46,852 nucleotides of DNA from Chloroflexota bacterium (GCA_024638855.1 JAHEJP010000001.1:2895-49746); one strand, 5' to 3'. Positions 15 through 35,054 are shown, counted from the stretch's first letter. Made by a program: numbers and translations. The notes: generated by a model not told the origin, from the letters alone.

Positions 15-2456
15 ATGACGATGCCCTCCTATCTAGGCCAATTTGATTTACAAGGACAACAGGAAAAGCAGCCAAGCAATGCCCTGGTCGTTAGCCTGGC
101 AATCGCCGTTTCCCTGTTTCTGTTAAGTCTTGTGAGCTGGTTCTTATTCGATCCGCTCAACCAACCGCTTCACATTTTTGTGCCCCTGGCAGCTTTGTTC
201 ATCATGATTCCTGGCATCTTGTTTATACGGCGAAAGAAAGTAGTGCTGGGTATCAGCTTATCGCTATTAGGGTTGGCCATAAGTTACCTCTTTCTCATCA
301 CGCAATTTGAAGGCGTTGGTACACTGGCGGCAATCGTCTTTTCTCTGGTCGTCATCAGCGCTGTACGGGAAACCTTTCCTCTAACTTTCGTTTCTCGTCT
401 AGCTATATTGGCGCTCGTCCTCGGCCTGTGTATGCTGATGTTGGATTTGTTTTGGCCGGGAGCCCGACGCCAGGCAGTGCCCCAGGGGTTATCCTTGCTG
501 GTGATTTTGGCCATTGCCGCTGGCCTGATGGTCACGCTTTATTCGCTGCGGCGCTATCCGCACTTCAGTCTTAGAGAAAAATTGGTCGCCGCCTTTGTAG
601 CCGTGGCCTTATTACCTCTGATTACAATCGTCACACTTAGCAATAACTCAACCCAAGATGTTTTAGTTAGGGACGCAAACCAGCGGCTGCAAGCCGCAAG
701 CCGGCAAACGGCCGTGGCCGTCGACGATTATCTTGACAATTACCTGCTCACAATTCGGACAGAGGCCAGCTTGCTCGAAGATAGTGGCTATCTTGATCTG
801 CCAGAAGAGGAGCGCAGTGGATCTGAAAAAGAAGCCAGCATCATGGCCCAGCTGGGGACCTATCGAGATAAAGATCCACTCAATATCTCATCCTATGCCT
901 TGTTGGATATCGATGGGCGTACGCTATTGGAATACCCGACAAATAGCCCTGAGTTGGATGAAGCGGGCCGTGATTACCTCACAGTGCCCCTTGAAACAGG
1001 CCAACCCTATGTATCGAGCGTGGAATTCACACCGGAGATGAGAGGGGCTTTCATCTATTTCAGCGCTCCGTTACACGATGCAACTGACCAGGTAACAGGC
1101 ATCATCCGAGCCCGCGTGAAAGCCAGCATTCTCCAGCAACTTATCGCTCGCAGCACCGGTTTGGTAGGCGGTCAATCATTCGCTGTGCTATTCGATGAGA
1201 ATTACATGCACCTGGCTCACGGCACGGCGCCCGAGACATTATTTAAACTTGTCTCTCCCCTCTCTCAAGAGCGCGTGGCAGAACTACAAGATCAATTGCG
1301 ACTCCCTCGCCTGCCTGTTGGCGGACTATCCACAAATTTGCCGGAACTGGCGAATAAGCTTGATAATGCGCAAGAGCAACCATTTTTCACGGCTGAAGAT
1401 GTGGCCACAGGCGATAAAATTAACCAGGTTGCGGTGATCAGAACCAGTCGCCAACCGTGGCTGGTGGCATTCTTCCAACCACAAGAAGTGTTTTTAGCTC
1501 CCGCCGAAAGCCAAACCCAAACGGCCGTCATCTTATCTGTAGTCGTTACTGCGGCCGTCGTCTTGGTGGCAGTGGTGCTGGCATCATTCCTAACCGGGCC
1601 AATCAACCGGCTACAAGAAGTCGCCGAAAAAGTGGCTCAAGGCGATCTCGGCGCACGGGCTAAGGTGGAATCCGACGATGAGATTGGTTCCTTGGCCAAT
1701 ACTTTCAATCTAACCACCGGCCGGCTCCAAGAAACATTGCTGACCCTGGAACAACGGATTGCTGACCGCACCCGTGCATTGACTATCAGCAGCGAGGTGG
1801 GTCGCCGTCTATCTACCATTCTTGACGAACAGCAATTGGTATCAGAAGTAGTGGAACAAGTACAAAAGGCTTTTGGTTACTACCATGCCCATATCTACCT
1901 GCTGAACGACGAGGGCGATCGCCTGATCATGATGGGTGGCACCGGCCGGGCTGGTCAATTGATGTTAGCACAAGGTCATTACGTCGACAAGGATAAGGGA
2001 TTGGTCGGCCGGGCAGCTAGAGAAAACAGGGTCGTCTTTGTGCCTGATATCAGAAAGGATCCAGAGTGGTTGCCGAATACACTGCTACCAGACACCATGT
2101 CGGAGGTAGCCGTGCCCATCGCCGTCGGCGACCAGGTACTTGGAGTGCTAGACGCTCAGGACGATGAGGCCAATGGTTTACAACAACAAGACGCTGACCT
2201 ACTTTTTTCGATTGCCAACCAAGTTGCCATCGCACTTCAGAACGCCAAAACTTATGCTGAGATTCAACGACAAGCGGAACGACGCGCATTGATCAATGAG
2301 ATCAATCGCAAGATCCAGAACACTTTTGATGCCCAGAAGGCAATGCAGATAGCCGTCCGGGAAGTAGGTAGGGCAGTAGGCGGGCGATCCGCTCGTGTCT
2401 GGCTGAACGATCCGGCGGGCAGCACCAATGGAAACTCATCCGATGCGGAGGAGTGA
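15..2456 (+). CDS. Membrane sensor protein: multi-TM N-terminus + extracytoplasmic Cache-like domain + HAMP + GAF, with no catalytic output domain
   Basis: ATG at 15 is preceded by GGAGA. The first ~200 aa are hydrophobic helices. A ~290-aa extracytoplasmic region follows (ISSYALLDIDGRTLLEYP, PYVSSVEF), then a TM segment. HAMP motifs: GPINRLQEVAEKVAQGDLG...DEIGSLANTFN. GAF motifs: YYHAHIYLL, GLVGRAA, SEVAVPI, GVLDAQ. No H-box, N/G-box, GGDEF or EAL motif follows the GAF. Confidence 0.8.
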   Translation: MTMPSYLGQFDLQGQQEKQPSNALVVSLAIAVSLFLLSLVSWFLFDPLNQPLHIFVPLAALFIMIPGILFIRRKKVVLGISLSLLGLAISYLFLITQFEGVGTLAAIVFSLVVISAVRETFPLTFVSRLAILALVLGLCMLMLDLFWPGARRQAVPQGLSLLVILAIAAGLMVTLYSLRRYPHFSLREKLVAAFVAVALLPLITIVTLSNNSTQDVLVRDANQRLQAASRQTAVAVDDYLDNYLLTIRTEASLLEDSGYLDLPEEERSGSEKEASIMAQLGTYRDKDPLNISSYALLDIDGRTLLEYPTNSPELDEAGRDYLTVPLETGQPYVSSVEFTPEMRGAFIYFSAPLHDATDQVTGIIRARVKASILQQLIARSTGLVGGQSFAVLFDENYMHLAHGTAPETLFKLVSPLSQERVAELQDQLRLPRLPVGGLSTNLPELANKLDNAQEQPFFTAEDVATGDKINQVAVIRTSRQPWLVAFFQPQEVFLAPAESQTQTAVILSVVVTAAVVLVAVVLASFLTGPINRLQEVAEKVAQGDLGARAKVESDDEIGSLANTFNLTTGRLQETLLTLEQRIADRTRALTISSEVGRRLSTILDEQQLVSEVVEQVQKAFGYYHAHIYLLNDEGDRLIMMGGTGRAGQLMLAQGHYVDKDKGLVGRAARENRVVFVPDIRKDPEWLPNTLLPDTMSEVAVPIAVGDQVLGVLDAQDDEANGLQQQDADLLFSIANQVAIALQNAKTYAEIQRQAERRALINEINRKIQNTFDAQKAMQIAVREVGRAVGGRSARVWLNDPAGSTNGNSSDAEE

Positions 2457-2462
2457 TATAGA

Positions 2463-3563
2463 ATGAGGATTCAGAAAGCCTGGCTGGCATTGATATGTTT
2501 ATTCGCCTTTGTGATCTTGGCAGTTGCTTGTAACGCGGCCGATTTGCAGGAGCCCGAGACCGAACTGCCAGTGCAATCTGAAAGTTCAGGCGTATTGAGT
2601 TTTTACAATTGGGATACCTACATCGATCCAGAGATCCTATCCAGTTTTGAGCAGACTTATGGCGTAACTATCGACTACCAGATATTCGATTCCGATGAGG
2701 ATATGTACGATGAATTATTGGCTGGGGGGACCGGCAAATACGATTTGGTCGTTCCCTCGGATATCACCGTCAACGACATGCGTAATTACCGGCTGTTAGC
2801 TCCTCTAAATAAAGAGCAGATCCCAAACTTCGGTAACATTGATCCAACCTTCGTCAGCCCTGCATTCGACCCGGCCAATCGTTACTGTGCCCCTTACCAG
2901 TGGGGAACAGTTGGCATTGGCTATGACCTGGCTGCGACTGGTAGAGAGATCAATAGCTGGGAGGATGTTTTCGATCCGGCTTTCGCCGGGAGAGTAGCTT
3001 TGCTGGATGACTACCGAACCACGATGGGGTTGGTCTTGATCATGCTAGGATACAGCCCAAATACTAGTAATGCGACATATATCACCGAGGCCACTGAATT
3101 CCTAAAGGAACACAAGGAACAAATAGGTGGATACGTTGGAGATAATGCACAGGATCTGCTATTGGCAGGTGAATATGATCTGGTCATGGAGTGGAGTGGC
3201 GATATTTTCCAGATAATGGAAGAAAACCCCAATATACAATACGTGATCCCCGCTGAAGGTTCGATCATTTGGGTAGACAATATTTGCATCCCGGCCGATG
3301 CTCCCAATAAAGAGATGGCTGAAACGTTTATCAACTATCTCCTAGAGCCGGAGGTAGGGGCCACATTAACCAATTACGTTCAATATGGCTCACCGAACCA
3401 GGCTTCGCTGCCCTATATCGAAGATGATATTCTAAATGACCCGGCTATTTACCCGTCGGAGTCAGTTCGGGAGCGCTTATTTTTTCTGGTCGACGTAGGT
3501 ATGGCGATTGATGATTCTTACCAGCTGGCATGGGAAGAAATACTTTCTGGTCATGGATCTTGA
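2463..3563 (+). CDS. PotD/PotF-family (spermidine/putrescine-type) periplasmic substrate-binding protein, probably a lipoprotein
   Basis: Signal peptide ends in Cys (FVILAVAC). YNWDTYIDPE...YGVTIDYQIFDSDEDMY...KYDLVVPSD is typical of polyamine-binding proteins. GGAGGAG lies 9 nt upstream of the ATG. No potABC-type permease or ATPase is adjacent. Confidence 0.85.
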   Translation: MRIQKAWLALICLFAFVILAVACNAADLQEPETELPVQSESSGVLSFYNWDTYIDPEILSSFEQTYGVTIDYQIFDSDEDMYDELLAGGTGKYDLVVPSDITVNDMRNYRLLAPLNKEQIPNFGNIDPTFVSPAFDPANRYCAPYQWGTVGIGYDLAATGREINSWEDVFDPAFAGRVALLDDYRTTMGLVLIMLGYSPNTSNATYITEATEFLKEHKEQIGGYVGDNAQDLLLAGEYDLVMEWSGDIFQIMEENPNIQYVIPAEGSIIWVDNICIPADAPNKEMAETFINYLLEPEVGATLTNYVQYGSPNQASLPYIEDDILNDPAIYPSESVRERLFFLVDVGMAIDDSYQLAWEEILSGHGS

Positions 3564-3604
3564 TGCCTAGCAAAATGTTTCAGGAACATTCCAAGGCAAA
3601 TCTC

Positions 3605-5542
3605 ATGAAACGCAAGTTGTCTATTGAAAAACTCAGACCAAACAGCATTAAGACCCAGATCATATTGGGTTTTAGCATCATTCTCAGCTTGACCTTACTC
3701 ATTGCGGTCATCAATCTTGTTGCTCTGCAAGTACTGCAAACAAATATCGAAGCAACCATACAGGAAGCCAGCCGGGTCCGTGAATTAAGCCAGGAATTTG
3801 AAAACCAGTTTCTCCTAGCCAGACAAGAGGAAAAAGCTTTCTTGGACAATTGGCGCACCTTGGGCTACGAGATGGCGGCCGAAACACACGTCGCGGCAAG
3901 CCAGGAACATGTCGCGAATGCGCGCCGTAGCCTTGAGGAATTGGGACAATTAATCGACGATAGCTCCTACCAGCACTTGGACCAAATATCGGAAGAATTA
4001 GCTGTTCTGGGCCCTGCGCTCGATAGATATGAGTCTTCGTTCTTAGAAACTGTGGATAAGATTGGCGATCGCAGCCGGGCCGGTGGCTCCGAGTTAAGAT
4101 TACAAAACGCCAAGCGCAATGTGCAAGAATTGGCCAGTACGATTCCGAACAGTATCGAATTGAATCGGACCATCGTACAAATGGATGCCAGCGAACAGGC
4201 ATTTTTCGGCAACGGTCATCAGGAACATGTGGATCAGGCCAGGTTGCTTACCTTAAAAACCAAAGATTTGTTAAACAACACGCCTCACCTCGATTGGGCC
4301 TATTCAGATATGGCCCGACCCCTGCTCGTGAAAGCAGTCGAAGAAAGGCAAGCAGCTTTTGGTGATTTAGTTGAGCTAGATCAAGAGATCTGGATCAATG
4401 CAGCTATATTCCAAGAGACAAACTTGGAGATCAGTGAATTGACCGGTCACATCGGAGAAGATGCCGCAGAGGCTCTAGCCAACGGCAGAACTAACCTAGT
4501 GAGAGCGGTCACTGGCAGTAGCATCATATCCATTATCGTCAGCCTGGCTGTCCTGGCCATCGGTGTGCTTACGGCCTTAGTATTGGGCCGGCGTATCCTT
4601 GGCCCGCTGAACCAATTAACGGAGGCCTCCAGGCAGATCGGCGAAGGTAACCTGCTGGTAACAGTCCCCGTCAGCGGTCAGGACGAATTCGCAACACTTG
4701 GCCAGGCCTTCAACCAGATGGCCAAAGAATTGCGCAGCTTGATTGGATCCTTGGAGCGAATGGTCGCCGACCGCACGCGAGCCCTGTCCACCAGCTTCCA
4801 GGTCAGCCGCCGTCTTTCGACCATCCTAGACCAACAGCAACTTGTGGCCACGGTTGTAGAACAAGTGCAGGCCGCTTTCGACTATTATCACGCCCATATC
4901 TATCTCGTTGATGACTGGACAGGGCAGTTGCGCATGGTCGGGGGGACCGGCGAAGCAGGCCAGGCAATGTTGGCCGCCGGTCATAAATTGGAGAAGAGCC
5001 AGGGTCTCGTTGGCAGGGCAGCAGAAACGCGCAAACCAGTCATCGTACCGGATGTCAGCCAGGACCCACAATGGTTGCCCAACCCGCTCCTTCCTGGCAC
5101 ACGGGCTGAGATCGCTGTGCCCATTATGCTGGGAAATAAAGTCAGAGGCGTCCTTGACGTCCAGCATGACATCCGCGATGGGCTGGATAAAACGGATGCC
5201 GAACTCTTGCAGACAATAGCGAACCAAGTCGCCATCGCGCTGCAAAACGCCCAGCTTTATGAAGATACTCAACAGGTCGCCCAACGCGAAGCGACAGTGA
5301 ACAGCATTAACCAAAAGATACAACAAGCAGCCACGATAGAAAACGTGCTGGAAATTGCGGCTCTAGAATTGGGCAAGGCTTTAGGTAAAAAGCCCACCAG
5401 TGTGCAGCTTGGTTTTTCGACACGAAGCAAAACTACCCTGGCTTCCGGACATCAGTTTACCAACATGCAACCTAAACGTATTGACAATAGGACAAAAAAC
5501 AAGCCGACAAAAAATGGTCACCCACCAGAGTTGGCAACATAG
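3605..5542 (+). CDS. Membrane sensor: TM + helical extracytoplasmic domain + TM + HAMP + GAF, no catalytic output domain (paralog of 15..2456 in the HAMP-GAF part)
   Basis: ATG at 3605 (MKRKL...) has AAGG 8 nt upstream. An alternative ATG at 3563 overlaps the upstream stop as TGATG. HAMP: GPLNQLTEASRQIGEGNL...DEFATLGQAFNQM. GAF: YYHAHIYLV, GLVGRAA, AEIAVPI, GVLDVQHD. The protein ends without kinase or cyclase motifs. Confidence 0.8.
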   Translation: MKRKLSIEKLRPNSIKTQIILGFSIILSLTLLIAVINLVALQVLQTNIEATIQEASRVRELSQEFENQFLLARQEEKAFLDNWRTLGYEMAAETHVAASQEHVANARRSLEELGQLIDDSSYQHLDQISEELAVLGPALDRYESSFLETVDKIGDRSRAGGSELRLQNAKRNVQELASTIPNSIELNRTIVQMDASEQAFFGNGHQEHVDQARLLTLKTKDLLNNTPHLDWAYSDMARPLLVKAVEERQAAFGDLVELDQEIWINAAIFQETNLEISELTGHIGEDAAEALANGRTNLVRAVTGSSIISIIVSLAVLAIGVLTALVLGRRILGPLNQLTEASRQIGEGNLLVTVPVSGQDEFATLGQAFNQMAKELRSLIGSLERMVADRTRALSTSFQVSRRLSTILDQQQLVATVVEQVQAAFDYYHAHIYLVDDWTGQLRMVGGTGEAGQAMLAAGHKLEKSQGLVGRAAETRKPVIVPDVSQDPQWLPNPLLPGTRAEIAVPIMLGNKVRGVLDVQHDIRDGLDKTDAELLQTIANQVAIALQNAQLYEDTQQVAQREATVNSINQKIQQAATIENVLEIAALELGKALGKKPTSVQLGFSTRSKTTLASGHQFTNMQPKRIDNRTKNKPTKNGHPPELAT

Positions 5543-5588
5543 TTGGCAACATTGTTGGATACAAAGTTGAACGAGTAGGTTTACTGCT

Positions 5589-8297
5589 ATGAATAATAAA
5601 TTAACGACAGGTAACGGCGAAGGCAGGAAGAAGACAGAATACTATTTCACGATCCGGTATACCTTGGTGGGTGTTGCCTTCGGGCTTGTGTTCCCATTCG
5701 TGGCCACGATTATCGTCTTGTTTGATAAGGGTTTGTCCTTCAATATCGCCTCTGTCGGCGGGGTTCACTACTTTGAACCGCTCTTGTGGATAATCGACAC
5801 GGCGCCACTTATCCTGGGCTTATTCGCGGCTCTTATTGGCCGGCGTGAAGATCGGCTTGAAAAGTCAAGACAACAGTTAGAGGCTATGGTCGGCGCCCTG
5901 GAAGAACGAGTGACTGCCACGTCTCGTGACCTCGATCGGGCCATTGAAGTCGGTCACACGGTTACCCAGGTCGATAACCTCGACGATATGATAGCCCAGG
6001 CTGTCGAACTCATCAGGGGCAGCTTTGAACTCTATTATGTTCAGGTTTATCTGCTAGATGCCAATGATCATAATTTAATACTGCGCGCCGGGACAGGGAC
6101 TATTGGCCAGACCCTGGTCCATCAAAATCACCGGCTACCCGTAAGCCTAGGATCTATCGTCGGTTCGTCCGCACTGGAAAAGAGGACCATCGTAGTCGCC
6201 AACACGACCACCAGCGAGGTTCACCAGCCGAATCCACTGCTTCCCAATACCTGTTCTGAGATGGCTATGCCGCTCATTCTCGGTGACCAGGTAGTCGGCG
6301 TTCTTGATTTGCAGAGTGATATCCCAGGTAAATTAACCGACGAAACTGTTCCTGCTTTAGAAGCTGTGGCTGGCCAACTTACGATGGCTATCCAAAATGC
6401 CCGTTTGATGGTCCAAACGAAAGAGGCTAGCTTGCAGAGTGATCACCAGGTCCGGCAGCAAACCCGTAAAGGCTGGCAAGAGTTCCTAGATGCAATTGAA
6501 CGAAGTGATTATCTCGGTTACGTCTACGAGGCTGGAAACGTCACGCCTCTAGAACAACCTTTGATAAACAATCTAAGCAAGGATGACCTCTTCATACCAA
6601 TCCTGATCACGGACGAACATGTGGGATCGATTCGAGTTCAAGGAGAGAAGGATCATGAATGGGGCTCCTATGAGAAGGATATCGCCGCGGCTGTGGCCGA
6701 ACAGGTGGCAAAACAGGTAGAAAGCCTGAGATTACTGTCCGAAGCGGATCATTACAGGAGCGAGGCTGAAGATGCTACGCGCCGGCTCACACGAGAAGGC
6801 TGGGAAGATTATCTACTGCAGAAGGTGCCTCATGGAACCGGGTACGAATATCAAGATAATCGGGTGAACATGCTTCTGACGGAACCAAACGGCGACAGGC
6901 GCAACTCAACTATTTACCAAGAGCTTAAGGTTCGGGGTGAGACGATAGGCCAGCTGGAGATCACCCAGGTTGAAGGTCTTGATGACGAAGCTGCCGATCT
7001 TGTTGCGGCAGTGGCAGTACAATTGAGCGCTCATCTCGAAGGTTTAAGGCTGAGCGAACAGACCGAGCGCGCTCTAGCTGAAACAGAGCTGCAGGCGCAG
7101 CGATTCGCCGAGCTCAATAGGTTGAGCCAGGCGCTTTCCAGTGCGGATACGCTCGATGATGTATACAAGGTAGCGGCCGCTAATATCAGCCGGATTGTCC
7201 CAGCTAACCGAATTAGCATCGCGATCCTCGATCCTGGCAAAGATAGTTTCGATATTTTGGCCCTAAACGGTGAATCAGGCGCTACCAAGGTGGGAGTTGT
7301 GACATCCACGGAGGGATCGGTTTTAGCTACCGCTGTCGAGCAAAAACGGGTGGTCGCCAAAAACCAGGCAGATGAAGGTGGGTTGCCTGGAATTGAGTCT
7401 TTCATGGTTGCTCCTCTGACTGCCGGCGGTCAAACCTTCGGAACATTAAATTTGGGTCACAATGAGCCCAATGCATTTGATCCAGGAGATGAACTGCTAA
7501 TGCTCCAGGTGGCATCCATCCTAGCCTCCACTTTAGAGAGCCAGCGACTGTTCGATAAGATAGTTCATAGAGCGGAAGAATTGGCCGCCATCAGTGAAAC
7601 AGCCCAGAACCGAGCAGAAGAACTGGCCATTCTCAATGAAATGGGACGATCCCTGACCTCGATGACCGATCGAGAATTGGTCATGACGACCGTCTACCAA
7701 CATGCAGCCCGTCTTATCCAGGCAGATAGTCTTTATATCTCCCTGTTTGACGCTAATAAAGATGAGATCATTTTCAGGATTTTTGGTGAAGGAGAGGAGA
7801 CAAGCAAATCGGCGTCGCGGAGGCGCAGTGGCAACGGCATAACTGAATACGTCATCAGAACAAGGAAACCACTGCTCATCAAAAATGAATTGGAAAACCG
7901 GATTGAGGAATTAGGAATTGAAGCGCATGGACGGATGGCCGCATCCTGGCTTGGTGTACCCATGACTACCGGCGACCAGGTAGTTGGGGTCCTGGCGGTA
8001 CAAAGTTTCGAAAGAACGAATGCATTCGATGAGCACCACCGGGAATTATTGACGGCCGTTGCCAACCAGGCCGTGATTGCGCTGGAAAATGCGAGCATGT
8101 TTGAACAAGCCCAGATGCGCGCTAAGCAGGAACGACTATTGCGGGAGATCACCGAACGAGTTCGTAATTCGGCCGATGTCGATACAGTCATGCGCACGGC
8201 TGCGCAAGAAGTCGGCCGGGCACTAGGCCGGCAAAGTTTCATTTACCTGGGCGATCATGACGACGGGGTTCCTTTCGATCCGGTAGAGGAGACATGA
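5589..8297 (+). CDS. Multi-GAF protein: 2 N-terminal TM helices, GAF, two degenerate ~100-aa GAF-like modules, two further GAF domains, no catalytic output
   Basis: TM helices: VGVAFGLVFPFVATIIVLF and LLWIIDTAPLILGLFAALIG. GAF1: LYYVQVYLLD...SEMAMPLILGDQVVGVLDLQSD. GAF2: ANRISIAILD...FMVAPLTAGGQTFGTLNL. GAF3: ADSLYISLFD...WLGVPMTTGDQVVGVLAVQS. No H-box or other enzymatic motif. Confidence 0.8.
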   Translation: MNNKLTTGNGEGRKKTEYYFTIRYTLVGVAFGLVFPFVATIIVLFDKGLSFNIASVGGVHYFEPLLWIIDTAPLILGLFAALIGRREDRLEKSRQQLEAMVGALEERVTATSRDLDRAIEVGHTVTQVDNLDDMIAQAVELIRGSFELYYVQVYLLDANDHNLILRAGTGTIGQTLVHQNHRLPVSLGSIVGSSALEKRTIVVANTTTSEVHQPNPLLPNTCSEMAMPLILGDQVVGVLDLQSDIPGKLTDETVPALEAVAGQLTMAIQNARLMVQTKEASLQSDHQVRQQTRKGWQEFLDAIERSDYLGYVYEAGNVTPLEQPLINNLSKDDLFIPILITDEHVGSIRVQGEKDHEWGSYEKDIAAAVAEQVAKQVESLRLLSEADHYRSEAEDATRRLTREGWEDYLLQKVPHGTGYEYQDNRVNMLLTEPNGDRRNSTIYQELKVRGETIGQLEITQVEGLDDEAADLVAAVAVQLSAHLEGLRLSEQTERALAETELQAQRFAELNRLSQALSSADTLDDVYKVAAANISRIVPANRISIAILDPGKDSFDILALNGESGATKVGVVTSTEGSVLATAVEQKRVVAKNQADEGGLPGIESFMVAPLTAGGQTFGTLNLGHNEPNAFDPGDELLMLQVASILASTLESQRLFDKIVHRAEELAAISETAQNRAEELAILNEMGRSLTSMTDRELVMTTVYQHAARLIQADSLYISLFDANKDEIIFRIFGEGEETSKSASRRRSGNGITEYVIRTRKPLLIKNELENRIEELGIEAHGRMAASWLGVPMTTGDQVVGVLAVQSFERTNAFDEHHRELLTAVANQAVIALENASMFEQAQMRAKQERLLREITERVRNSADVDTVMRTAAQEVGRALGRQSFIYLGDHDDGVPFDPVEET

Positions 8298-8298
8298 C

Positions 8299-11200
8299 AT
8301 GCGAACCATGAAGGCTTTAGACTCGGCGCATAAGGCGCTAGAGCCAGAAGAGGCCGCCAGGCTCGTCATGCAAGAGGAGTTGATAGTCGCTTGCAATGAA
8401 AGTGCCCTCGAGCTTTTTCAGTGTGAGCGAAAGGATCTCTTAGGCCGTTCATTCCTTGACTTCTCCGTAGAGGCACAGCCTAATGGCCGGAATTCGGACG
8501 ATGCGCTCCGTCTCAGAGCCGCTGCTGCTCTTGCCTTTCAGAAGCAGAACTTTCAATGGGTTTGCAGGCGCCCTGACGGTGAAGCTTTCAAGGCCCAAGC
8601 TATGCTCGACAGAATTCGCGCTCGTGGCAAAACCTTCATCCAGCTCACGCTTAACCAAATTAAACAACATGACCCGACTGAAGAAGCCTTGCTTAAATTC
8701 AGGATGGGTATCGAGCGCTCGAATGATGCGATCTTCATGACCGATGTGGACGGGCACATCATTTATGCAAATCCGGCTTTTGGACGCGTCTACGGCTTTT
8801 CCCGCCAGGAAACGATCGGTAATACCCCAAGGATTCTCAAATCCGGCATCACCCCTCAAGAAGAATATAGAGATTTCTGGCAAAAATTATTGAAAAAGGA
8901 TGTGGTCTCTGGAGAAATCGTCAACAAGACAAAAGACGATCAGTTAGTTCACATCGAAGGTTCAAATAATCCCATCCTTGACGATTCAGGCAATCTCATC
9001 GGTTTTCTGGCCATCCACCGGGATATATCCGAAAGGAAAAGGACGCAAGAGGCGCTCCAGAAAGCTCATGAAGAATTGGAAAGACGGGTTGAAGAACGAA
9101 CCGAAGAATTGGCCAATGTCAATACGCTTCTCCGAGATCAATACGAGGAAATCGCTGAAGTAAAGGATGCTTTAGAGCGCCGTAATAAGATTCTGGAAGC
9201 CCTTAATCAATTGGCCCGGCAAACGGCCACAAGTATGAAAATGCAGCCCATTTTCGAGACGGTCGTCGAAGTGGCTTCACAACTTATTGATTGCAGTCGT
9301 GCCCATGTTTCTACGATTGATTTGGATAAACATACGACTACGGTTGTTGCCGAATATATCAGCTCAGATGCTTCTGAAGTAGAGAAGGTCTCCGCTCTTG
9401 GAATGACTTATGATCTACTCGAAGAATTTAATAGAAACACCACATCACTTTCGGAGACCGGAAAATTTCTCATCCAGCATGTGGATGATCTTGACTTAAC
9501 TCCTGAAAAACGGGCTTATATGGAACGCTTCGACGCACGCAGCGTTCTTGGAGTCCATTTGGCCGTGGCAGGTGAACTCGTAGCCAAGGTGGAATTTTGG
9601 GAAAGCCGCCAAAGGCGTGACTTTTCTAGCGAGGAAATCGAGCTTGTTCAAGCCGTTGTCCGCCAGGTGATTATTTCTCTTCAGAATGCCCATCTTTACC
9701 AGCAGGCGATGCATGAACTTTCCGAGCGCCGGCAACTGGAACAACAGATCAATCGATCGTATGAACGACGTGGTCGCCAGGTACAGTTGTCGACACAATT
9801 CGCTAAGGACATTGCCGCTGCTACTAACTTAACAGATCTCTACAGACGCGTCGTAAGACAGGTAAAAGAACAATTTGGCTATTATCATACCCAGTTACTG
9901 CGCTACGATTCGAATCTAGATGCGGTAATATTGATCGCCGCTTACGGAGAGGTCGGCAAGAATATGTTGCGTCAAGGGCACCGGATGGCCGTAGGCGAAG
10001 GGCTTATCGGTCAAGCCGCCGCAACCGGTCGCGCGGTTTTGCGGCCCAATGTAACAGTAGACCCTGAATGGCAAGCCAATGAATTGCTACCGCAAACAAA
10101 GGGTGAGCTGGCCGTGCCGATCATGTTGGGCGACGAAGTGCTCGGTGTGCTGGATGTCCAGAGTGATATAGCGGATGCCTTGGATACCGAAGATCAGTTA
10201 GCCCTAGAAGGTCTATGTGGCCAAATCGCTATCGCTATCGAGAGCACACAACTACGCCAGGATATGGAAGAACGGTTGCGCGAATTGAACCAGTTGCAGC
10301 GGATTATGAGCCGGGAAGGATGGCAAGTATTTCGCTCCCAGAGAGATACGGGCACATTGGGCTACCGCTATGATCGATCGGCGCTGCAGTCGGTGGCAAA
10401 TATACAGGCAACCGCTTCCAGAGATGCACTGGCAGGTTCGATTTGGGATACCCAACCGCTTTCTGAATCGCCAAAACCGGTCGTAACTTCTCCTATGAAA
10501 GTCCGCGGGGAAATCATCGGCGCGCTTGGCATTCGTGACGAACCAGATCAACCACTCACGGCGGATGAAAGAGAATTACTGGATTCGGTAACCGAGCAGG
10601 TAGCCGAAGCCTTAGAAAGCGCCCGGTTACTTGAGCAAACCCAAAAACACGCTGTGCAGATGGAAGCGGTGGCTCGGGTAAGCGCCGCTGCTTCAACCAT
10701 CTTGGATGCCTACAAGCTATTGCAGACTGTAACGAACCTGACGAAAGAACGATTCGGATTATACCACTCGGCCGTCTATTTATTGAAAGGTGAAATGCTT
10801 CAAATGACAGCCGGAACTATGCTGCCAAAGATTGCCACTGAAGAATTCGAACCAACCGAAGTCCATATCTTGCAGGAGCAATCAATCATAGCCCGAGCGG
10901 CCCGGGCTAAAGAACCGATCATCATCAACGATGTAGCCAAGGTGCCATATTACTTGGGCCAGACGACTTTACCTGGTACCAGAGCAGAGGCCGCTATTCC
11001 CCTGAAAGTTGGCGACCAGGTGCTGGGCGTTTTCGACCTGCAGTCGGATATGCAGAATAGATTTAATGAGGATGAGGTCCGAATCCATGTCACCCTGGCG
11101 GCTCAAGTAGCTGTCGCCTTGCAAAACGCAATGCTCTATACAGAACAGTTAGCTGTAGCCGATCGCTTACGGGAAGTTGACCGCTTAAAATCGGAATTTT

Positions 11201-11892
11201 TAGCCAGTATGAGCCACGAGCTGAGAACACCTTTGAACTCGATCATCGGTTTCGCCGACGTTTTGCTTGAAGGCATCGACGGCCCATTAAATGATCGAAT
11301 GTCTGAAGACGTCACTCTTATTCGAGATAGCGGCAAACATTTGCGGACACTGATCGGCGAGATCCTGGACATGTCCAAAATTGAAGCAGGCGTCATGGAA
11401 CTTTATTACGACGATATCGACGTGACTGAACTGGCCGAAGAGATCGCATCTTATGCTAGAGCCTTGGCAAAAGGCAAGAAACTTGACATAAATGTGAATG
11501 TCTCGACTACTATACAAACAATTGAGGCCGATCGCACTCGCCTGACACAAGTCTTACTCAACCTGATGGGCAACGCCGTTAAATTCACCGAGGAAGGAAA
11601 AGTGACGCTCACTCTGGAAGATCGAAACGGCGATCTACTGGCATCCGTGCGAGATACCGGCATTGGCATCAAGAAAGAAGATATACCAGCCATCTTTGAG
11701 CAATTTCGCCAGATCGATGGCAGCCTGACGCGAAAAGCAGGTGGCACCGGGCTAGGTATACCCATTAGTAAAAGCCTGGTGGAGCTGCATGGTGGTGAAA
11801 TGTGGGTCGATAGCGAGCCTGGAGAAGGGAGCGTGTTTTCATTCACGATTCCACGCCAGCGAGTTTTAGCCATGAATAAAATTGATGATTGA
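8299..11892 (+). CDS. Soluble sensor histidine kinase: PAS-PAS-coiled coil-GAF-GAF-(degenerate module)-GAF-HisKA-HATPase_c
   Basis: The ATG lies 1 nt after the upstream TGA. PAS: DAIFMTDVDGHIIYANPAFGRVYGFSRQE. H-box: SHELRTPLNSIIGF. N-box: LLNLMGNAVKFT. G1: VRDTGIGI. G2: GGTGLGIPISKSLVELHGG. Confidence 0.9.
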   Translation: MRTMKALDSAHKALEPEEAARLVMQEELIVACNESALELFQCERKDLLGRSFLDFSVEAQPNGRNSDDALRLRAAAALAFQKQNFQWVCRRPDGEAFKAQAMLDRIRARGKTFIQLTLNQIKQHDPTEEALLKFRMGIERSNDAIFMTDVDGHIIYANPAFGRVYGFSRQETIGNTPRILKSGITPQEEYRDFWQKLLKKDVVSGEIVNKTKDDQLVHIEGSNNPILDDSGNLIGFLAIHRDISERKRTQEALQKAHEELERRVEERTEELANVNTLLRDQYEEIAEVKDALERRNKILEALNQLARQTATSMKMQPIFETVVEVASQLIDCSRAHVSTIDLDKHTTTVVAEYISSDASEVEKVSALGMTYDLLEEFNRNTTSLSETGKFLIQHVDDLDLTPEKRAYMERFDARSVLGVHLAVAGELVAKVEFWESRQRRDFSSEEIELVQAVVRQVIISLQNAHLYQQAMHELSERRQLEQQINRSYERRGRQVQLSTQFAKDIAAATNLTDLYRRVVRQVKEQFGYYHTQLLRYDSNLDAVILIAAYGEVGKNMLRQGHRMAVGEGLIGQAAATGRAVLRPNVTVDPEWQANELLPQTKGELAVPIMLGDEVLGVLDVQSDIADALDTEDQLALEGLCGQIAIAIESTQLRQDMEERLRELNQLQRIMSREGWQVFRSQRDTGTLGYRYDRSALQSVANIQATASRDALAGSIWDTQPLSESPKPVVTSPMKVRGEIIGALGIRDEPDQPLTADERELLDSVTEQVAEALESARLLEQTQKHAVQMEAVARVSAAASTILDAYKLLQTVTNLTKERFGLYHSAVYLLKGEMLQMTAGTMLPKIATEEFEPTEVHILQEQSIIARAARAKEPIIINDVAKVPYYLGQTTLPGTRAEAAIPLKVGDQVLGVFDLQSDMQNRFNEDEVRIHVTLAAQVAVALQNAMLYTEQLAVADRLREVDRLKSEFLASMSHELRTPLNSIIGFADVLLEGIDGPLNDRMSEDVTLIRDSGKHLRTLIGEILDMSKIEAGVMELYYDDIDVTELAEEIASYARALAKGKKLDINVNVSTTIQTIEADRTRLTQVLLNLMGNAVKFTEEGKVTLTLEDRNGDLLASVRDTGIGIKKEDIPAIFEQFRQIDGSLTRKAGGTGLGIPISKSLVELHGGEMWVDSEPGEGSVFSFTIPRQRVLAMNKIDD

Positions 11893-11937
11893 TGAACAAT
11901 AGAACTCACAATTATTCGAGCGTTTGTAGGGGTCATT

Positions 11938-12315
11938 ATGCAGAAAAGAATACTAGCAATCGAAGATAATTCTTCAAATATGCTCTTGATTTCTCGGGTA
12001 GTCGAGGCAGAGGGATATGATTTAATACGAGCTGAAGATGGCAACTCGGCTCTGGAGTTACTCAGCCGGGAGACGCCCGATCTCATCCTTCTGGATATTA
12101 ATATTCCGGGGATTCACGGCCTGGACCTGGCGCGGCATTTGAAGGCCGACGACAGGTTGGCACCGATCCCGATTATTGCCACAACCGCCAATGTCCTACT
12201 TGGCGATAAGGAACGCTGCCTGGAGGCCGGCTGCGACGAATATCTACCAAAACCGTTGGATATACGCGAATTACGGACGATGATGCGCAGCTATCTGACC
12301 AATGGGGCAATCTGA
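11938..12315 (+). CDS. Single-domain response regulator (receiver only)
   Basis: Receiver signature: AIEDN acidic pair, phospho-acceptor context DLILLDINIPG, IIATTAN, LPKPLD lysine. Only 125 aa, so there is no output domain. Confidence 0.9.
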   Translation: MQKRILAIEDNSSNMLLISRVVEAEGYDLIRAEDGNSALELLSRETPDLILLDINIPGIHGLDLARHLKADDRLAPIPIIATTANVLLGDKERCLEAGCDEYLPKPLDIRELRTMMRSYLTNGAI

Positions 12316-12369
12316 GCGGGTCATTTATCGAAGCTAACTGGGGTTACATATTGATGAGGTTAAAACGCC

Positions 12370-13026
12370 GTGCACCAGTCAACAGATACAGCCGAAATAG
12401 TTAACCTGGCCAATCCGGCCATCCTCGACAATTTTCAAGATATCGCGATCGTGCTAGACAAGCAGAAATGTATCGTAATGCTCAACGAATCAGGAAGTAA
12501 GATGTTCGCAGATCATAATACCCAACCTCTTGGCAAAGTGATCGATCAAGCGTTACGAGAATTAGCCCTGAATACCAAGGTCAAAATGAGCGGAACGGTA
12601 AACCAGAAGGAAATAAGAATTGGCGATGGTCCAGATGCTGATTTCTACAGCATGCGAATCTTACCCATCCCAACCAACGATGAAGAGAAAATTGGCCATA
12701 TGATGATCCTTCGCAATATCACGCTTACCAAAAAAGCCGATGCTACCATTGAAGCGGAACGGCGGCGCTCCGATTCTCTCTCGAAATTAAGTCACGACAT
12801 CAGGACACCGCTCAGTGGGATCTTGGGCCTGGCTGAGATGCTGGAATTGGGCACATTTGGCCCCTTGAATGAAAAGCAGTTAAAGGCAACCCGGCAAATT
12901 CTGGAACGGTCCGATCACTTAACCAAGCTTCTCAACGAATTGCGCCATATAGTAAAATCAGATTCTGACCAGGGGAACTTACCTAACCGAAGTGTTCCAG
13001 GTATGGTATCATTGGAGTCAGGGTAA
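12370..13026 (+). CDS. PAS + HisKA/DHp-only protein (H-box present, no HATPase_c); candidate Spo0B-like phosphotransferase or phosphatase
   Basis: GTG start with GAGG ~10 nt upstream. N-terminal PAS-like ~120 aa. H-box LSHDIRTPLSGILGLAEML. The ORF stops ~75 aa after the His with no N/G1/G2 boxes, and the next gene starts 33 nt later, so there is no remnant of a lost ATPase domain. Confidence 0.7.
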   Translation: MHQSTDTAEIVNLANPAILDNFQDIAIVLDKQKCIVMLNESGSKMFADHNTQPLGKVIDQALRELALNTKVKMSGTVNQKEIRIGDGPDADFYSMRILPIPTNDEEKIGHMMILRNITLTKKADATIEAERRRSDSLSKLSHDIRTPLSGILGLAEMLELGTFGPLNEKQLKATRQILERSDHLTKLLNELRHIVKSDSDQGNLPNRSVPGMVSLESG

Positions 13027-13059
13027 CGACGAAACCACATCACCAAAGGAGACCATGGG

Positions 13060-13422
13060 GTGACACCAAAGGCGTTGATTATCGAGGATGATGCCACATT
13101 GGCAATAGTATATGCCGAAGCTTTGCGTTCAGCGAAATTCGATACGGCCGTCATTCATACCGGTCAAGCCGCGATGGACTATTTGAAAGTTTCAAGTCCA
13201 CAAATCATTGTCCTCGATCTTCACTTGCCGGATGTTTCGGGCATCAGGATCGTTGAACAGGTCAGGTCACTGGATCATTTAGCGGGGACACGCATCATCG
13301 TCACCAGTGGGGATCCGGGATTGGCCGATACGGTTCGCGAGCAGGTTGACCTGGTGTTAGATAAACCGGTGAGTAACGAGCAACTACAGTTATTAAGCTC
13401 CAGGATGCGCCCGGCCGATTAA
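13060..13422 (+). CDS. Single-domain response regulator (receiver only)
   Basis: GTG start 8 nt after AAAGGAG. IIEDD, IIVLDLHLPDVSG, IIVTSGD and LDKPV match the receiver signature residues. 120 aa. Confidence 0.85.
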   Translation: MTPKALIIEDDATLAIVYAEALRSAKFDTAVIHTGQAAMDYLKVSSPQIIVLDLHLPDVSGIRIVEQVRSLDHLAGTRIIVTSGDPGLADTVREQVDLVLDKPVSNEQLQLLSSRMRPAD

Positions 13423-14580
13423 CACGCTGGGTTCCCCCAGTACTCTCGTTAGAAAAACGACACAACTACCCTCCCCTTTAAGCCGTAGCTGTTGGCGCAA
13501 TGTGTCAGGATCTAGGGGCGAGCCACGTTTCTTTATAGTCGCCTGGCCAATACCGCTCTCACGCAGGTATTTTCTCAATCGTTTAAGACCAAACGGGAAG
13601 CTATCTTCTACGGCGTAACAACGGCCGAATGGCGTCGGCGTGAAATTATCGCTAGTCAGGTAGGCGATGTCGGCATCAATCTTTGTTGCTCCCAGATTAT
13701 GCGCTAGATGTTCCACCAGGTGCGCCCGAATAACCGCGCCATCGGGTTCATAAAGATAGGCCTTCGGCCGGGTGATTGATACCCCTTTTTCTAGCCTTTC
13801 ATCGGTCAATGTTACGCCTTCTGGTAAAAGGGTTGCCCGCCGTCTGGCGGTGGAACGCAGAGCCCCAAACCATAAAACAGCTTCCCGCACTTCACCATTT
13901 ACGGAAATGAATTCCACTTCGGCACCGGCCGGCAACTCTTCATAGTTCACACCCGGGCTAATTTTCACAGCCTGGTTGGGAACGATCTTCCGCCAACGCT
14001 CTAGAAAGCTGATCGGCGGTCGATAGTCGTGGACGGAGTAAATCCGGCGACCACTTGCCGTTCGCCGGCCAGGATCGGCGAAAACTGCCTCAACCGGCAG
14101 CGGACTGAGATCCAACAAGTCCGCTTGTAGGGGATGGAAATGACCGGAAAGACCACTCAGGCGGACATTTTCGCGAGCCATAACCAGTCGAAGCAGATCG
14201 AGATCCACGCCTATGACGAGCCCTATAGCCGCCAAGGCCAACGAGTCGCCGCCGATGCCACAACCCAGGTCGGCTACTTCTTCAAAACCGGCTTGAGCAA
14301 ATCGTCCAGCCCGATAGTCAGCAACGATCTCGGCCGAAGCTTGTTCTAACGCCTGGCGGGTGAAATACATGTCTTGGGCGCGCTGAAATTTTGCGGTCGC
14401 CCGGCGGCGCAACAGGCTTGTTTCCAATAGCGCATGGGCTCGCGATTGCCCGACCTGGTCGCGCAATCTACTGGCGAGGCGCAGATGATCATCGCCATCA
14501 AGCCGCTCTTCCTGGGCTAACTCAGATAGAAGTTGTTGGCCTTCAGAGCCAAGAAGGTAATTCAGATCTTCGAGGCGCAC
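13393..14580 (-). CDS. Class I SAM-dependent methyltransferase with C-terminal THUMP-like domain (PG_1098-like family; probably acts on RNA or a nucleotide)
   Basis: Motif I: VADLGCGIGGDSLALA. VFADPGRR motif. C-terminal ...FPFGLKRLRKYLRESGIGQATIKKRGSP... resembles the THUMP-like tail of this family. The GTG at 14580 (VRLEDLNYLL) lies 5 nt after the upstream stop. The longest ORF runs to 14670 but would overlap the upstream gene by 85 nt. Confidence 0.75.
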   Translation of the reverse strand: MRLEDLNYLLGSEGQQLLSELAQEERLDGDDHLRLASRLRDQVGQSRAHALLETSLLRRRATAKFQRAQDMYFTRQALEQASAEIVADYRAGRFAQAGFEEVADLGCGIGGDSLALAAIGLVIGVDLDLLRLVMARENVRLSGLSGHFHPLQADLLDLSPLPVEAVFADPGRRTASGRRIYSVHDYRPPISFLERWRKIVPNQAVKISPGVNYEELPAGAEVEFISVNGEVREAVLWFGALRSTARRRATLLPEGVTLTDERLEKGVSITRPKAYLYEPDGAVIRAHLVEHLAHNLGATKIDADIAYLTSDNFTPTPFGRCYAVEDSFPFGLKRLRKYLRESGIGQATIKKRGSPLDPDTLRQQLRLKGEGSCVVFLTRVLGEPSVLIGRAHPGA

Positions 14581-14585
14581 TTTGC

Positions 14586-15365
14586 CTACAACCTTGCCGG
14601 CTCTTGGGATGGCTGTTGGTCCTCTTGCTGCCAATCTTCCAGCTCGAGCTGGCCTGTTTGACGGCCGCAATAGACTTGATAGGCGCAGCGACTACATTGG
14701 TTCAAGTCTTCGGTTAGGGGCCAAGCTTCTTGCAGTGGCAACAAGGCGTCGAGTTCATTCACAATCTGATTGAACCGGCCCCAATTGGCTTCGTGCTGGC
14801 GCTGGTCGTAGTTGAAGGCCAGAACCGTATCCGGATCGTTGACGTACCAGTAGGTTAAGGTGATGTTTTGTGGCGCGATGTTTTCTTCCAGAGCGCTGGC
14901 GCCTTCGGCCGCCAGCCACAGATACAGCCTGGTTTGCAGATTCTCTTGAAGAGCTGATTTGTTTTGCGGACGGGCATCGGTTTTCCAGTCAAAGATATGG
15001 GCCTGATCATCGTCGATGATTAACAAATCGAACCGGCCGGTCAGGAAATGACGGCCGACCGGCACGGTCATACTTAGTTCGGGATAACGGTTGCCACGGG
15101 GTAAAGACGGCCCTTGCTTTTGGAATACCCTCCACCAATCGCCTAGATTGGGCACGTGTTTGACCTCTTCCTCGATGGGCAGGGCCAGGAAATGCCGGTG
15201 CATGAGTTGGTGGTAACGGTAGCCTAAGTCCCTCATTTCCCCGGCGTGACTGTCCAAGGGTGCTATTGGCCACGGCAAGTGTTCCCGATACCTCAGTTGA
15301 AATCGCCTCTGGCAAGCGACGAAATCGGCTATTTTGCCCCTGCTCAGAGTTAAGGAATGATCCAT
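14586..15365 (-). CDS. PD-(D/E)XK nuclease family protein, Cas4/AddB-like with a 4-Cys cluster
   Basis: N-terminal ...FVACQRRFQLRY. Core: GRFDLLIIDDDQAHIFDWKTD (D...D-x-K). QTRLYLW (QxxxY). C-terminal CSRCAYQVYC. Together these give the 1+3 cysteine arrangement of Cas4/AddB Fe-S nucleases. Confidence 0.7.
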   Translation of the reverse strand: MDHSLTLSRGKIADFVACQRRFQLRYREHLPWPIAPLDSHAGEMRDLGYRYHQLMHRHFLALPIEEEVKHVPNLGDWWRVFQKQGPSLPRGNRYPELSMTVPVGRHFLTGRFDLLIIDDDQAHIFDWKTDARPQNKSALQENLQTRLYLWLAAEGASALEENIAPQNITLTYWYVNDPDTVLAFNYDQRQHEANWGRFNQIVNELDALLPLQEAWPLTEDLNQCSRCAYQVYCGRQTGQLELEDWQQEDQQPSQEPARL

Positions 15366-19243: not shown

Positions 19244-20173
19244 ATGGATGATAATATCGAATTTCACACTGATGTTCAAAAAGCACTAAATGAGCAAAAA
19301 GCTGTCGTCGCTTTAGAAAGTACCGTCATCTCTCATGGTCTGCCTTACCCGGAGAATGTGGAGACGGCGCTCAATATGGAGGCGGCCGTCCGAGATGGGG
19401 GAGCTGTGCCAGCGACTGTGGCTATCCTCCAGGGACAAGTAAACGTTGGCCTGACGCCGGATCAATTAGAATACCTGGCTACACGGCCGGTGGGCCAGGT
19501 GCGAAAATGTAGTCGACGTGATCTCCCCTTAGCTGTGGCTCGCCGGGAAGATGGTGCCACGACCGTAGCTGGGACGATGATCATTGCTCATTTGGCCGGG
19601 ATCGAGATCTTCGCCACTGGGGGGATTGGTGGCGTACACCGAGGACACCCGTTTGATGTAAGTGCCGACCTCAGCGAGCTTGGTCGGACACCGGTCACCG
19701 TGGTTTGCAGCGGCGCCAAATCGATCCTTGACCTGCCTCTGACAAGAGAAATATTGGAAACAAATGGCGTGCCCCTCATCGGTTATGGCGTCAACGAAAT
19801 GCCGGCTTTCTTCTCCCGCAGCAGCGGATTATCTGTCGACGTCCAGCTCGATACAGCGGCCGAAGTAGCGGAGACGATCCTTGCCCGGCGGTCGCTCAAT
19901 TTGTTGTCCGGACTTTTGGTGACGGTTCCAGTGCCAGAGGCTGATGAATTCGATCCGCAGGTCGCCGAAGAGGCCATAGCCCAGGCTACACGAGAAGCGG
20001 ATGAAGCCGGCATCTTTGGACCTGAAACGACACCCTGGTTACTACGCCGGGTTGCCGTATTGACCGGTGGCCGAAGTATGAAGGCTAATCTCTCATTGTT
20101 AGCCAATAACGGCCGGGTCGCCGGCGCTATCGCAGTTGCCTTGAACCGACAGGAAATTGATATTAATTTATGA
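19244..20173 (+). CDS. psuG: Pseudouridine-5'-phosphate glycosidase
   Basis: VVALESTVISHGLPYPEN, GATTVAGTMIIAH and ATGGIGGVHRG motifs are characteristic of PsuG/IndA. ATG at 19244 (MDDNIEF). The upstream part of the ORF has no homology-like signal. Confidence 0.9.
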   Translation: MDDNIEFHTDVQKALNEQKAVVALESTVISHGLPYPENVETALNMEAAVRDGGAVPATVAILQGQVNVGLTPDQLEYLATRPVGQVRKCSRRDLPLAVARREDGATTVAGTMIIAHLAGIEIFATGGIGGVHRGHPFDVSADLSELGRTPVTVVCSGAKSILDLPLTREILETNGVPLIGYGVNEMPAFFSRSSGLSVDVQLDTAAEVAETILARRSLNLLSGLLVTVPVPEADEFDPQVAEEAIAQATREADEAGIFGPETTPWLLRRVAVLTGGRSMKANLSLLANNGRVAGAIAVALNRQEIDINL

Positions 20174-20180
20174 TTTCATC

Positions 20181-35014: not shown

Positions 35015-35054
35015 TATTTTCAAAAAACAACCAAAGCGTAGGCAAGGTCAGAGC

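Follow-up and report, generated by a model that had tools for sequence, protein, structure and literature searches.

We describe here a signalling locus at positions 15-13422 of a 46,852-nt stretch of DNA (hereafter the window) from a Chloroflexota bacterium of the class Anaerolineae (GCA_024638855.1 JAHEJP010000001.1:2895-49746), whose closest relatives are metagenome-assembled genomes (MAGs) labelled 'Chloroflexia' or Promineifilaceae. The locus holds eight tightly packed open reading frames (ORFs), g1 to g8, all on the plus strand, and is a case of two-component signalling with kinase-less receptors, known in kind although its parts differ. We consider it rather likely that these genes encode a split multi-input sensor kinase, in which the kinase-less receptors g1, g3 and g4 assemble with the histidine kinase g5 into one hetero-oligomer and control it. 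That the kinase-less proteins are functionally coupled to the kinase is very likely, judged by gene order, by gene fusions and by the exclusive co-occurrence of two modules, a C-terminal tail and a reduced GAF-like repeat called mini-GAF (or mini).

Pfam and NCBIfam scans detected no output domain in g1, g3 and g4, and no HisKA, HisKA_3, HWE or HATPase match at E<=0.01; likewise, an output domain occurs in none of the 120 best g3 homologues. Among the four large sensor proteins, only g5 carries HisKA (3e-19) and HATPase_c (1e-30, both Pfam), with its SHELRTPL, N, G1, F and G2 boxes intact. A first-pass annotation, made by reading the window, had proposed three output-less HAMP/GAF sensors and a single catalytic one. 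The single kinase and the missing outputs were confirmed by these scans, but g4 proved to have no HAMP domain and is anchored in the membrane by two transmembrane (TM) helices only, as judged by a TM scan. The sensors gave no Pfam match to MCPsignal (PF00015), the NCBIfam models of methyl-accepting chemotaxis proteins (MCPs) covering the HAMP region only, and a PDB sequence search with the g3 transmitter returned generic GAF matches only.

A one-genome-per-species scan yielded 79 loci (L numbers below), all from Chloroflexota, in which domains were mapped on six-frame ORFs with the window's own domains and a hidden Markov model (HMM) of the tail. All current matches of the system lie in Anaerolineae. 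The recurrent arrangement is a co-directional block: often a binding-protein gene, then between one and five genes for tail-ended proteins, the gene for a large multi-GAF kinase, and receiver genes. The gene following the last tail gene encodes a kinase in 47 of the 54 informative loci, that is, those with enough downstream sequence, and two more have the kinase beyond a split or extra ORF (49/54). Some exceptions involve a locus edge: the next ORF (L082) or the second downstream ORF (L051) runs to the contig end, and only GAF/mini ORFs were mapped downstream in L070, the last one being cut by the locus end. In L029, the next ORF encodes a 1083-aa GAF protein without a kinase core. The close relatives L001, L002, L003 and L005 keep the order gatB, g1, (g2), g3, g4, g5, with g6 to g8 following in L002 and L005, and a REC gene comes after the kinase in nearly all related loci, being fused to it in L003. 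Conservation of the neighbourhood had been named beforehand as a check, and it is what these loci display.

Gene fusions point in the same direction. The g4 homologues share a common core, GAF-mini-mini-GAF, and end either in the tail or in HisKA-HATPase. Single-chain HAMP-GAF-mini-mini-GAF-HisKA-HATPase proteins also exist (e.g. P0170, P0207, P0219, P0232 and P0238), Rosetta-stone cases indicating a joint function of the HAMP-GAF transmitter and the mini-GAF kinase. Upstream of the fused kinases, tail-ended sensors and binding proteins are still encountered. The earlier proposal that several inputs converge on one kinase is thus well supported by comparative genomics (order, kinase adjacency and fusions), but it is not without precedent, since chemoreceptors signal to CheA in this manner.

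A GAF stub ends the kinase-less proteins

Each of g1, g3 and g4 stops about 70-100 residues past its last GAF domain, and the first ~50 of these residues are conserved among the three in an alignment. All 120 best g3 homologues end in the g3-type tail. In a 70-sequence alignment, the tail displays one invariant and more than 12 near-invariant positions, a conservation comparable to that of the GAF core, which fits an interface better than a relic.

The best PDB match of the tail is 6oap, a cyanobacteriochrome kinase, over an inter-GAF junction and the first helix of the second GAF, followed by 8w26, over the GAF-PHY junction of a cyanobacterial phytochrome. The tail HMM also matches the start of GAF2 within g4 and, in giant tandem-GAF kinases, the beginning of each GAF domain, at a spacing of about 175 residues. 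In AlphaFold2 (AF2) models of g3 and g4 (predicted local distance difference test, pLDDT, 87 and 81), GAF helix alpha5 extends as one long helix into the tail, which ends with a turn, a 15-residue helix equivalent to GAF alpha1, and an unstructured segment at the place of strand beta1. Judged by the PDB matches, the HMM and the AF2 models, the tail is a homologue of the GAF N-terminal part (junction helix, helix alpha1 and orphan strand), and the proteins thus end about 45 residues into a next GAF. The 'short conserved tail' of the first-pass annotation can therefore be described more specifically as a GAF stub. An enzymatic output in the tails had been named beforehand as the finding that would count against such receptors; Pfam, NCBIfam and the PDB sequence search find none.

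A profile built from the three window tails matched 4431 clusters at 50% identity among 1.84 billion representatives, a count that includes the inter-GAF junctions of tandem-GAF kinases. At least 92 of the best 145 representatives contain a complete tail, at a median distance of 14 residues from the C-terminus; 0 of these have a kinase core. The system was defined by proteins with a C-terminal GAF stub no farther than ~90 aa from their end and without a kinase core, as are g1, g3 and g4, and by a kinase with at least one mini encoded directly downstream, as is g5. The tail-ended proteins hence form a large coherent Chloroflexota family, whose end module is dedicated and whose genomic partner is constant. 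As signalling censuses sort receptors by output domain, g1, g3 and g4 are counted there as generic 'GAF domain-containing proteins'. We also considered that the stub completes a headless GAF in the next protein; this was rejected, g4 and g5 beginning with a TM anchor and a PAS-like domain, respectively, and their GAF domains having their own first helices.

The receptor side of the locus further includes g2, a secreted solute-binding protein. No cognate permease or ATPase gene lies nearby, and the sole nearby ABC transporter, of the polar amino-acid type, has its own family-3 binding protein, so that g2 is an orphan, as the first-pass annotation had it. It is probably a co-sensor for g3. Binding-protein genes precede tail sensors in L001, L003, L005, L010, L041, L048, L074, L084 and L085. 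Three unrelated families (PotD-like, NMT1/SsuA-like and ABC_sub_bind) share one slot, directly 5' of a tail sensor or sensor kinase gene (window 2463-3563; L074:7837-8904; L084:4534-5631; L085:5725-6822 and 8851-9942), which suggests that ligand-binding partners taken from unrelated binding-protein families are interchangeable at this position.

Mini-GAF modules and their co-occurrence with the stubs

The mini is a ~100-aa repeat (GW..Y ... GY.Y ... VRGE.IG ...) present in g4 and g5. It is not recognised by Pfam, and the mini pair gave no PDB sequence match. Its C-terminal half corresponds by homology to GAF strands beta4-beta5 and helix alpha5, as indicated by a profile search. In the AF2 models, its secondary structure consists of a spine helix, two beta-hairpins and a second spine helix. 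The minis thus do not lack the elements seen in the stub, and a simple fragment complementation at beta1 is unlikely.

Since the mini profile search drifted to the C-terminal half of ordinary GAF domains, only matches starting at profile position <=12 were counted. By this measure, at least one full-length mini is present in 49/49 kinases that follow a tail gene (47 direct and 2 split cases) and in 0/64 other kinases >500 aa from the same loci (Fisher 7e-30, a statistic that ignores phylogeny).

Both modules fall into subtypes. Clustering by identity resolved three kinds of mini, A and B being the first and second members of a pair and C the single mini of a kinase that comes after a g4-type protein, and two kinds of tail, sensor-type (..QKIQ..) and integrator-type (..ITARVR..). 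Of 44 complete operons, 17 have the integrator tail together with mini-C and 27 lack the two, with 0 discordant. The ratio of sensor tails to A/B minis is 2:2 in 26 of the 44, and the tails never exceed the minis. In the window, the sensor tails are those of g1 and g3, minis A and B both lie in g4 together with the integrator tail, and g5 contains mini-C.

The favoured mechanism and its rivals

In the mechanism that we favour, g1 (with its dCache domain) and g3 (probably with the secreted g2) would be membrane receptors whose HAMP-GAF transmitter ends in a GAF stub in place of a kinase. The g4 protein, which we propose to be an integrator, would act as a membrane-anchored multi-GAF adaptor, bearing two mini-GAFs and its own stub of the other subtype. 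With g5 as the only enzyme, g1, g3 and g4 would most likely join it in a hetero-oligomer and set its autophosphorylation rate. In the preferred wiring, mini-A and mini-B of g4 would be the docking sites of the g1 and g3 stubs, and mini-C of g5 that of the g4 stub; phosphate would then pass from the g5 histidine to the g6 aspartate, the g7 histidine and the g8 aspartate. In this scheme, we infer that the proteins make contact, which stub pairs with which mini and in which direction regulation runs, as well as the ligands and the final target; a hetero-oligomeric receptor-adaptor-kinase complex would be the most economical mechanism.

Docking of stubs on minis is favoured because it accounts for both the exclusivity of the minis and the subtype matching. 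More tentatively, and with doubts outweighing our confidence, stubs and minis may constitute a plug-and-socket wiring code, sensor-type stubs addressing A/B minis and integrator-type stubs mini-C, with a defined receptor-adaptor-kinase hierarchy as the outcome. If true, inputs could be gained or lost in evolution by whole-gene moves, and stub and mini would represent a new transmitter module class beside the kinase, MCP, cyclase and GGDEF outputs. The chance that stub and mini together make up a novel kind of wiring module is substantial.

Several points weigh against the split-kinase mechanism. L004 (CP070688.1) is the sole clear case of sensors without a neighbouring kinase. Nine complete operons combine one sensor-type tail with two A/B minis. 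The last tail segment is unstructured and of low confidence in the AF2 monomers, even in g4, which has minis in the same chain. Moreover, the 79 loci are the best matches to the g3 transmitter and no random sample of the family, and the tail/mini co-occurrence counts ignore phylogeny, so the events counted are not independent; when the kinase cores are grouped by a crude clustering, the 17 mini-C operons fall into sets of 10 and 7, by which one origin is neither proved nor excluded. Finally, we infer co-transcription from spacing alone. As for L004 itself, its region 7554-13760, in a complete MAG, encodes g1-/g3-like sensors and a g4 homologue that is shorter, at 602 aa, and labelled partial, a state that may reflect a frameshift, a rearrangement or a real loss.

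The strongest competing explanation, less likely but still plausible, is that the sensors regulate g5 without stub-mini docking, either by pairing along the GAF/coiled-coil spine, the stub being mainly a helical cap, or with the stub hairpin as a pseudo-DHp that would join or block the four-helix bundle of the kinase, as RetS does with GacS. The g4 family indeed aligns end to end with the kinases, differing only in its ending (tail versus HisKA-HATPase), and the AF2 stub is a helix-turn-helix right after GAF alpha5, where g5 has its DHp; the unfolded last strand of the tail in AF2 also suits this explanation. However, it leaves unexplained why minis are restricted to tail-associated kinases and why tail and mini subtypes co-occur. 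Furthermore, the stub contains no histidine and is homologous to the start of a GAF domain, not to a DHp.

It is improbable that the tail-ended proteins are independent of the kinase, the GAF domain itself being the output that binds or sequesters a small molecule or a partner, and adjacency reflecting co-regulation. Three observations go along with this possibility. A fold search with the g3 model retrieved ordinary GAF domains, with a resemblance to ligand-binding ones such as cAMP-bound Lcd1; the window also encodes a 1112-aa adenylate/guanylate cyclase-AAA-TPR protein (39552-42890, +) and a Crp-type regulator that binds cyclic nucleotide monophosphates (28024-28710, -); and the L004 sensors have no neighbouring kinase. 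But kinase adjacency in 49/54 loci, the covalent fusions of the same modules to a kinase and, among the locus kinases, the confinement of minis to the neighbouring one all speak against it. In addition, the GAF domain is nearly invariant across very different sensor domains, so that it behaves as a transmitter rather than as a variable sensor. Cyclic nucleotides are candidate ligands of these very conserved GAF domains.

Lastly, that the output-less genes are decayed or truncated kinase genes, assembly artefacts or free methionine-R-sulfoxide reductases is very improbable: the tail is a truncated domain, several homologues carry the JGI name 'putative methionine-R-sulfoxide reductase with GAF domain' and structures of such reductases are among the fold matches, but thousands of clusters (a count including inter-GAF junctions) share the end point and the strongly conserved tail, and the reading frames are intact in many species. 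Catalysis by free methionine-R-sulfoxide reductases is cysteine-based. For g3, an assignment to this family (COG1956) was discarded since its GAF region contains no cysteine, the likeness being in fold only.

Among known systems, the chemoreceptor array (MCP-CheW-CheA) would be the closest functional analogue of a split sensor kinase. Both have output-less membrane HAMP receptors with varied periplasmic sensors (dCache, 4HB), one soluble kinase, and a very conserved C-terminal helical hairpin common to the receptors. They differ in that MCPsignal is absent here, the transmitter being a GAF domain plus GAF stub, and in that the kinase is of class I (HisKA/HATPase) with PAS and GAF domains. No CheA, CheW, CheB or CheR, thus no adaptation enzyme, was found with Pfam among the window ORFs >=150 aa. 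For related loci, domain maps and gene tables showed neither CheA nor CheW.

In accessory-sensor ('three-component') systems such as UhpC-UhpB, LuxP-LuxQ and TorT-TorS, a non-kinase sensor also signals to a kinase, and a transporter-less periplasmic binding protein serves the sensor, as proposed for g2 and g3; unlike there, the accessory proteins here are homologous to one another and end in a dedicated module, an operon encodes up to five of them, and the kinase lies in the cytoplasm. Several sensors likewise act on one kinase in RetS/LadS-GacS, by direct contact and not phosphotransfer in the case of RetS, but RetS and LadS are full kinase-like proteins that pair by their DHp, whereas g1, g3 and g4 have neither DHp nor ATPase. 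Indeed, the domains that define chemoreceptor, accessory-sensor and RetS-GacS systems are all absent from g1, g3 and g4. The TM-HAMP-GAF order is that of NarX/NarQ-type kinases (with partial NCBIfam NarQ/NarX matches), and the helical spine through consecutive GAF domains is that of tandem-GAF cyanobacteriochrome and phytochrome kinases, whose inter-GAF junctions are matched by the tail; both groups, however, are single chains ending in a kinase and do not stop in the next GAF.

In the literature searched, which was incomplete, neither tail-ended HAMP-GAF proteins nor the mini module were found to be described, so that this is absence of evidence only; a study of NarX/NarQ diversity that includes Chloroflexi (PMC8199190) does not describe tail-ended HAMP-GAF proteins. 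If the sensors control the kinase, the system would be a second way, besides chemotaxis arrays, to feed many receptors into one kinase, and its parts could serve in synthetic signal integration. The analysis also gives testable partners for two uncharacterised modules and makes it possible to annotate numerous Chloroflexota genes of wastewater, soil and sediment communities.

Gene layout, putative downstream relay and neighbouring genes

The features of the locus are collected in Table 1.

Table 1. Genes, domains and modules of the locus (positions in the window)
Feature	Position	Strand	Support
g1, membrane sensor, 813 aa	15..2456	+	Pfam, NCBIfam, TM scan; 813-aa orthologues in L001, L002, L003
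g1 domains: 7 N-terminal TM helices, dCache_1 (663-1274), TM, HAMP (1578-1733), GAF (1821-2243)		+	
g1 tail, sensor-type GAF stub (..INEINRKIQ..REVGRAVG..VWL)	2265..2414	+	tail HMM E=9e-15, alignment, sensor-type cluster
g2, secreted PotD/PotF-like solute-binding protein, 366 aa	2463..3563	+	Pfam SBP_bac_8/6/1, NCBIfam PotD/PotF-like, signal peptide
g3, sensor	3605..5542; alternative starts 3530, 3563	+	ORF list, Pfam, TM scan; orthologues 645 aa
g3 domains: TM, ~265-aa extracytoplasmic domain, TM, HAMP (4580-4735), GAF (4829-5248), tail		+	
g3 tail, sensor-type GAF stub (..VNSINQKIQ..LELGKALG..VQL)	5270..5419	+	in all 120 best homologues
g4, multi-GAF protein, 902 aa	5589..8297	+	Pfam, TM scan, AF2 model
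g4 domains: 2-TM anchor, GAF1 (5979-6398), mini-A, mini-B, GAF2 (7152-7538), GAF3 (7668-8087), tail		+	
g4 mini-A, ~100-aa reduced GAF-like module	6444..6746	+	full-coverage profile match, cluster A, AF2 secondary structure
g4 mini-B	6762..7067	+	profile match, AF2, clustering
g4 tail, integrator-type GAF stub (..REITERVR..QEVGRALGR..IYL)	8112..8258	+	tail HMM 9.5e-10, integrator-type cluster
g5, soluble histidine kinase, 1197 aa	8299..11892	+	Pfam, NCBIfam; no TM segment
g5 domains: PAS-like N-terminus, PAS (8707-9033), GAFs (9820-10242, 10714-11127), HisKA (11188-11391), HATPase_c (11530-11859)		+	
g5 mini-C, single mini of kinases after a g4-type protein	10279..10644	+	profile match, clustering
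g6, single-domain receiver	11938..12315	+	REC 3e-25; probable phospho-acceptor Asp53, by eye
g7, PAS_4 + DHp	12370..13026	+	HisKA 1e-14, H-box SHDIRTPL, no HATPase; kept in L002, L005
g8, terminal single-domain receiver	13060..13422	+	REC 4e-15; probable Asp53, by eye; kept in L002, L005

The ORF list and translations agree with the eight plus-strand genes and the gap sizes given in the first-pass annotation: the gaps from g1 to g8 are 6, 41, 46, 1, 45, 54 and 33 nt. The second corresponds to the g3 start at 3605 and becomes -1 or -34 with earlier ATGs; the 3605 start, and with it the 41-nt gap, is favoured by the orthologues of g3, which are called at 645 aa. The 1-nt gap between g4 and g5 is kept in L001 and L002. 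A scan for terminator-like sites returned 11, versus 16.3 +/- 4.6 in shuffled sequences, and zero in the intergenic gaps, where the earlier reading had seen none either. A sigma-70 promoter scan gave a count under the shuffled expectation, such a scan being uninformative for this phylum, and Rfam detected no RNA element in the window, including the leader before g1, or in three orthologous loci. The close spacing of the eight genes, the lack of terminator-like sites between them and their kept order are consistent with co-transcription. Across the g3 stop codon and the g3-g4 spacer (5530-5577) lies a short period-12 tandem array (GTTGGCAACATA / GTTGGCAACATT / GTTGGATACAAA / GTTGAACGAGTA). An exact-sequence look-up of g3 and g5 returned no record.

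Downstream of the kinase, g7 is probably a histidine phosphotransferase, as suggested by its DHp, and at the sequence level g5, g6, g7 and g8 supply the components of a His-Asp-His-Asp relay, whose last member would be a receiver without output domain. The Spo0F-Spo0B-Spo0A and CckA-ChpT-CtrA phosphorelays have the same His-Asp-His-Asp parts and a DHp-type phosphotransferase without ATPase activity. They differ from the window in that g7 consists of PAS and DHp with nothing after the DHp, and in that g8 carries no output domain. In most Anaerolineales operons, the kinase is followed by a threonine-synthase-like pyridoxal-phosphate enzyme with a C-terminal receiver (L074:17755-19410; L085:13191-14849), an unusual response-regulator output, plus a small receiver; the window's clade has REC, PAS-DHp and REC in place of this fusion.

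The surroundings of the block vary as well. Upstream, gatB precedes it in the orthologous loci with a gap of ~380-470 nt; most Anaerolineales loci have a PAS-GAF kinase, an OmpR-type regulator and a REC-REC-GAF kinase just upstream (e.g. L074:517-7886), where the window's clade has gatB. Elsewhere in the window, the ORFs at 20157-21659 (+), 35007-36422 (+) and 28974-29783 (-), of 500, 471 and 269 aa, gave no Pfam match at the thresholds used. The downstream neighbour is a convergent THUMP-like methyltransferase gene (13393-14670, minus strand), whose longest call, with a TTG start, overlaps g8 by 30 nt at the 3' ends (13393-13422); in L002, the corresponding called genes overlap by a similar 39 nt.

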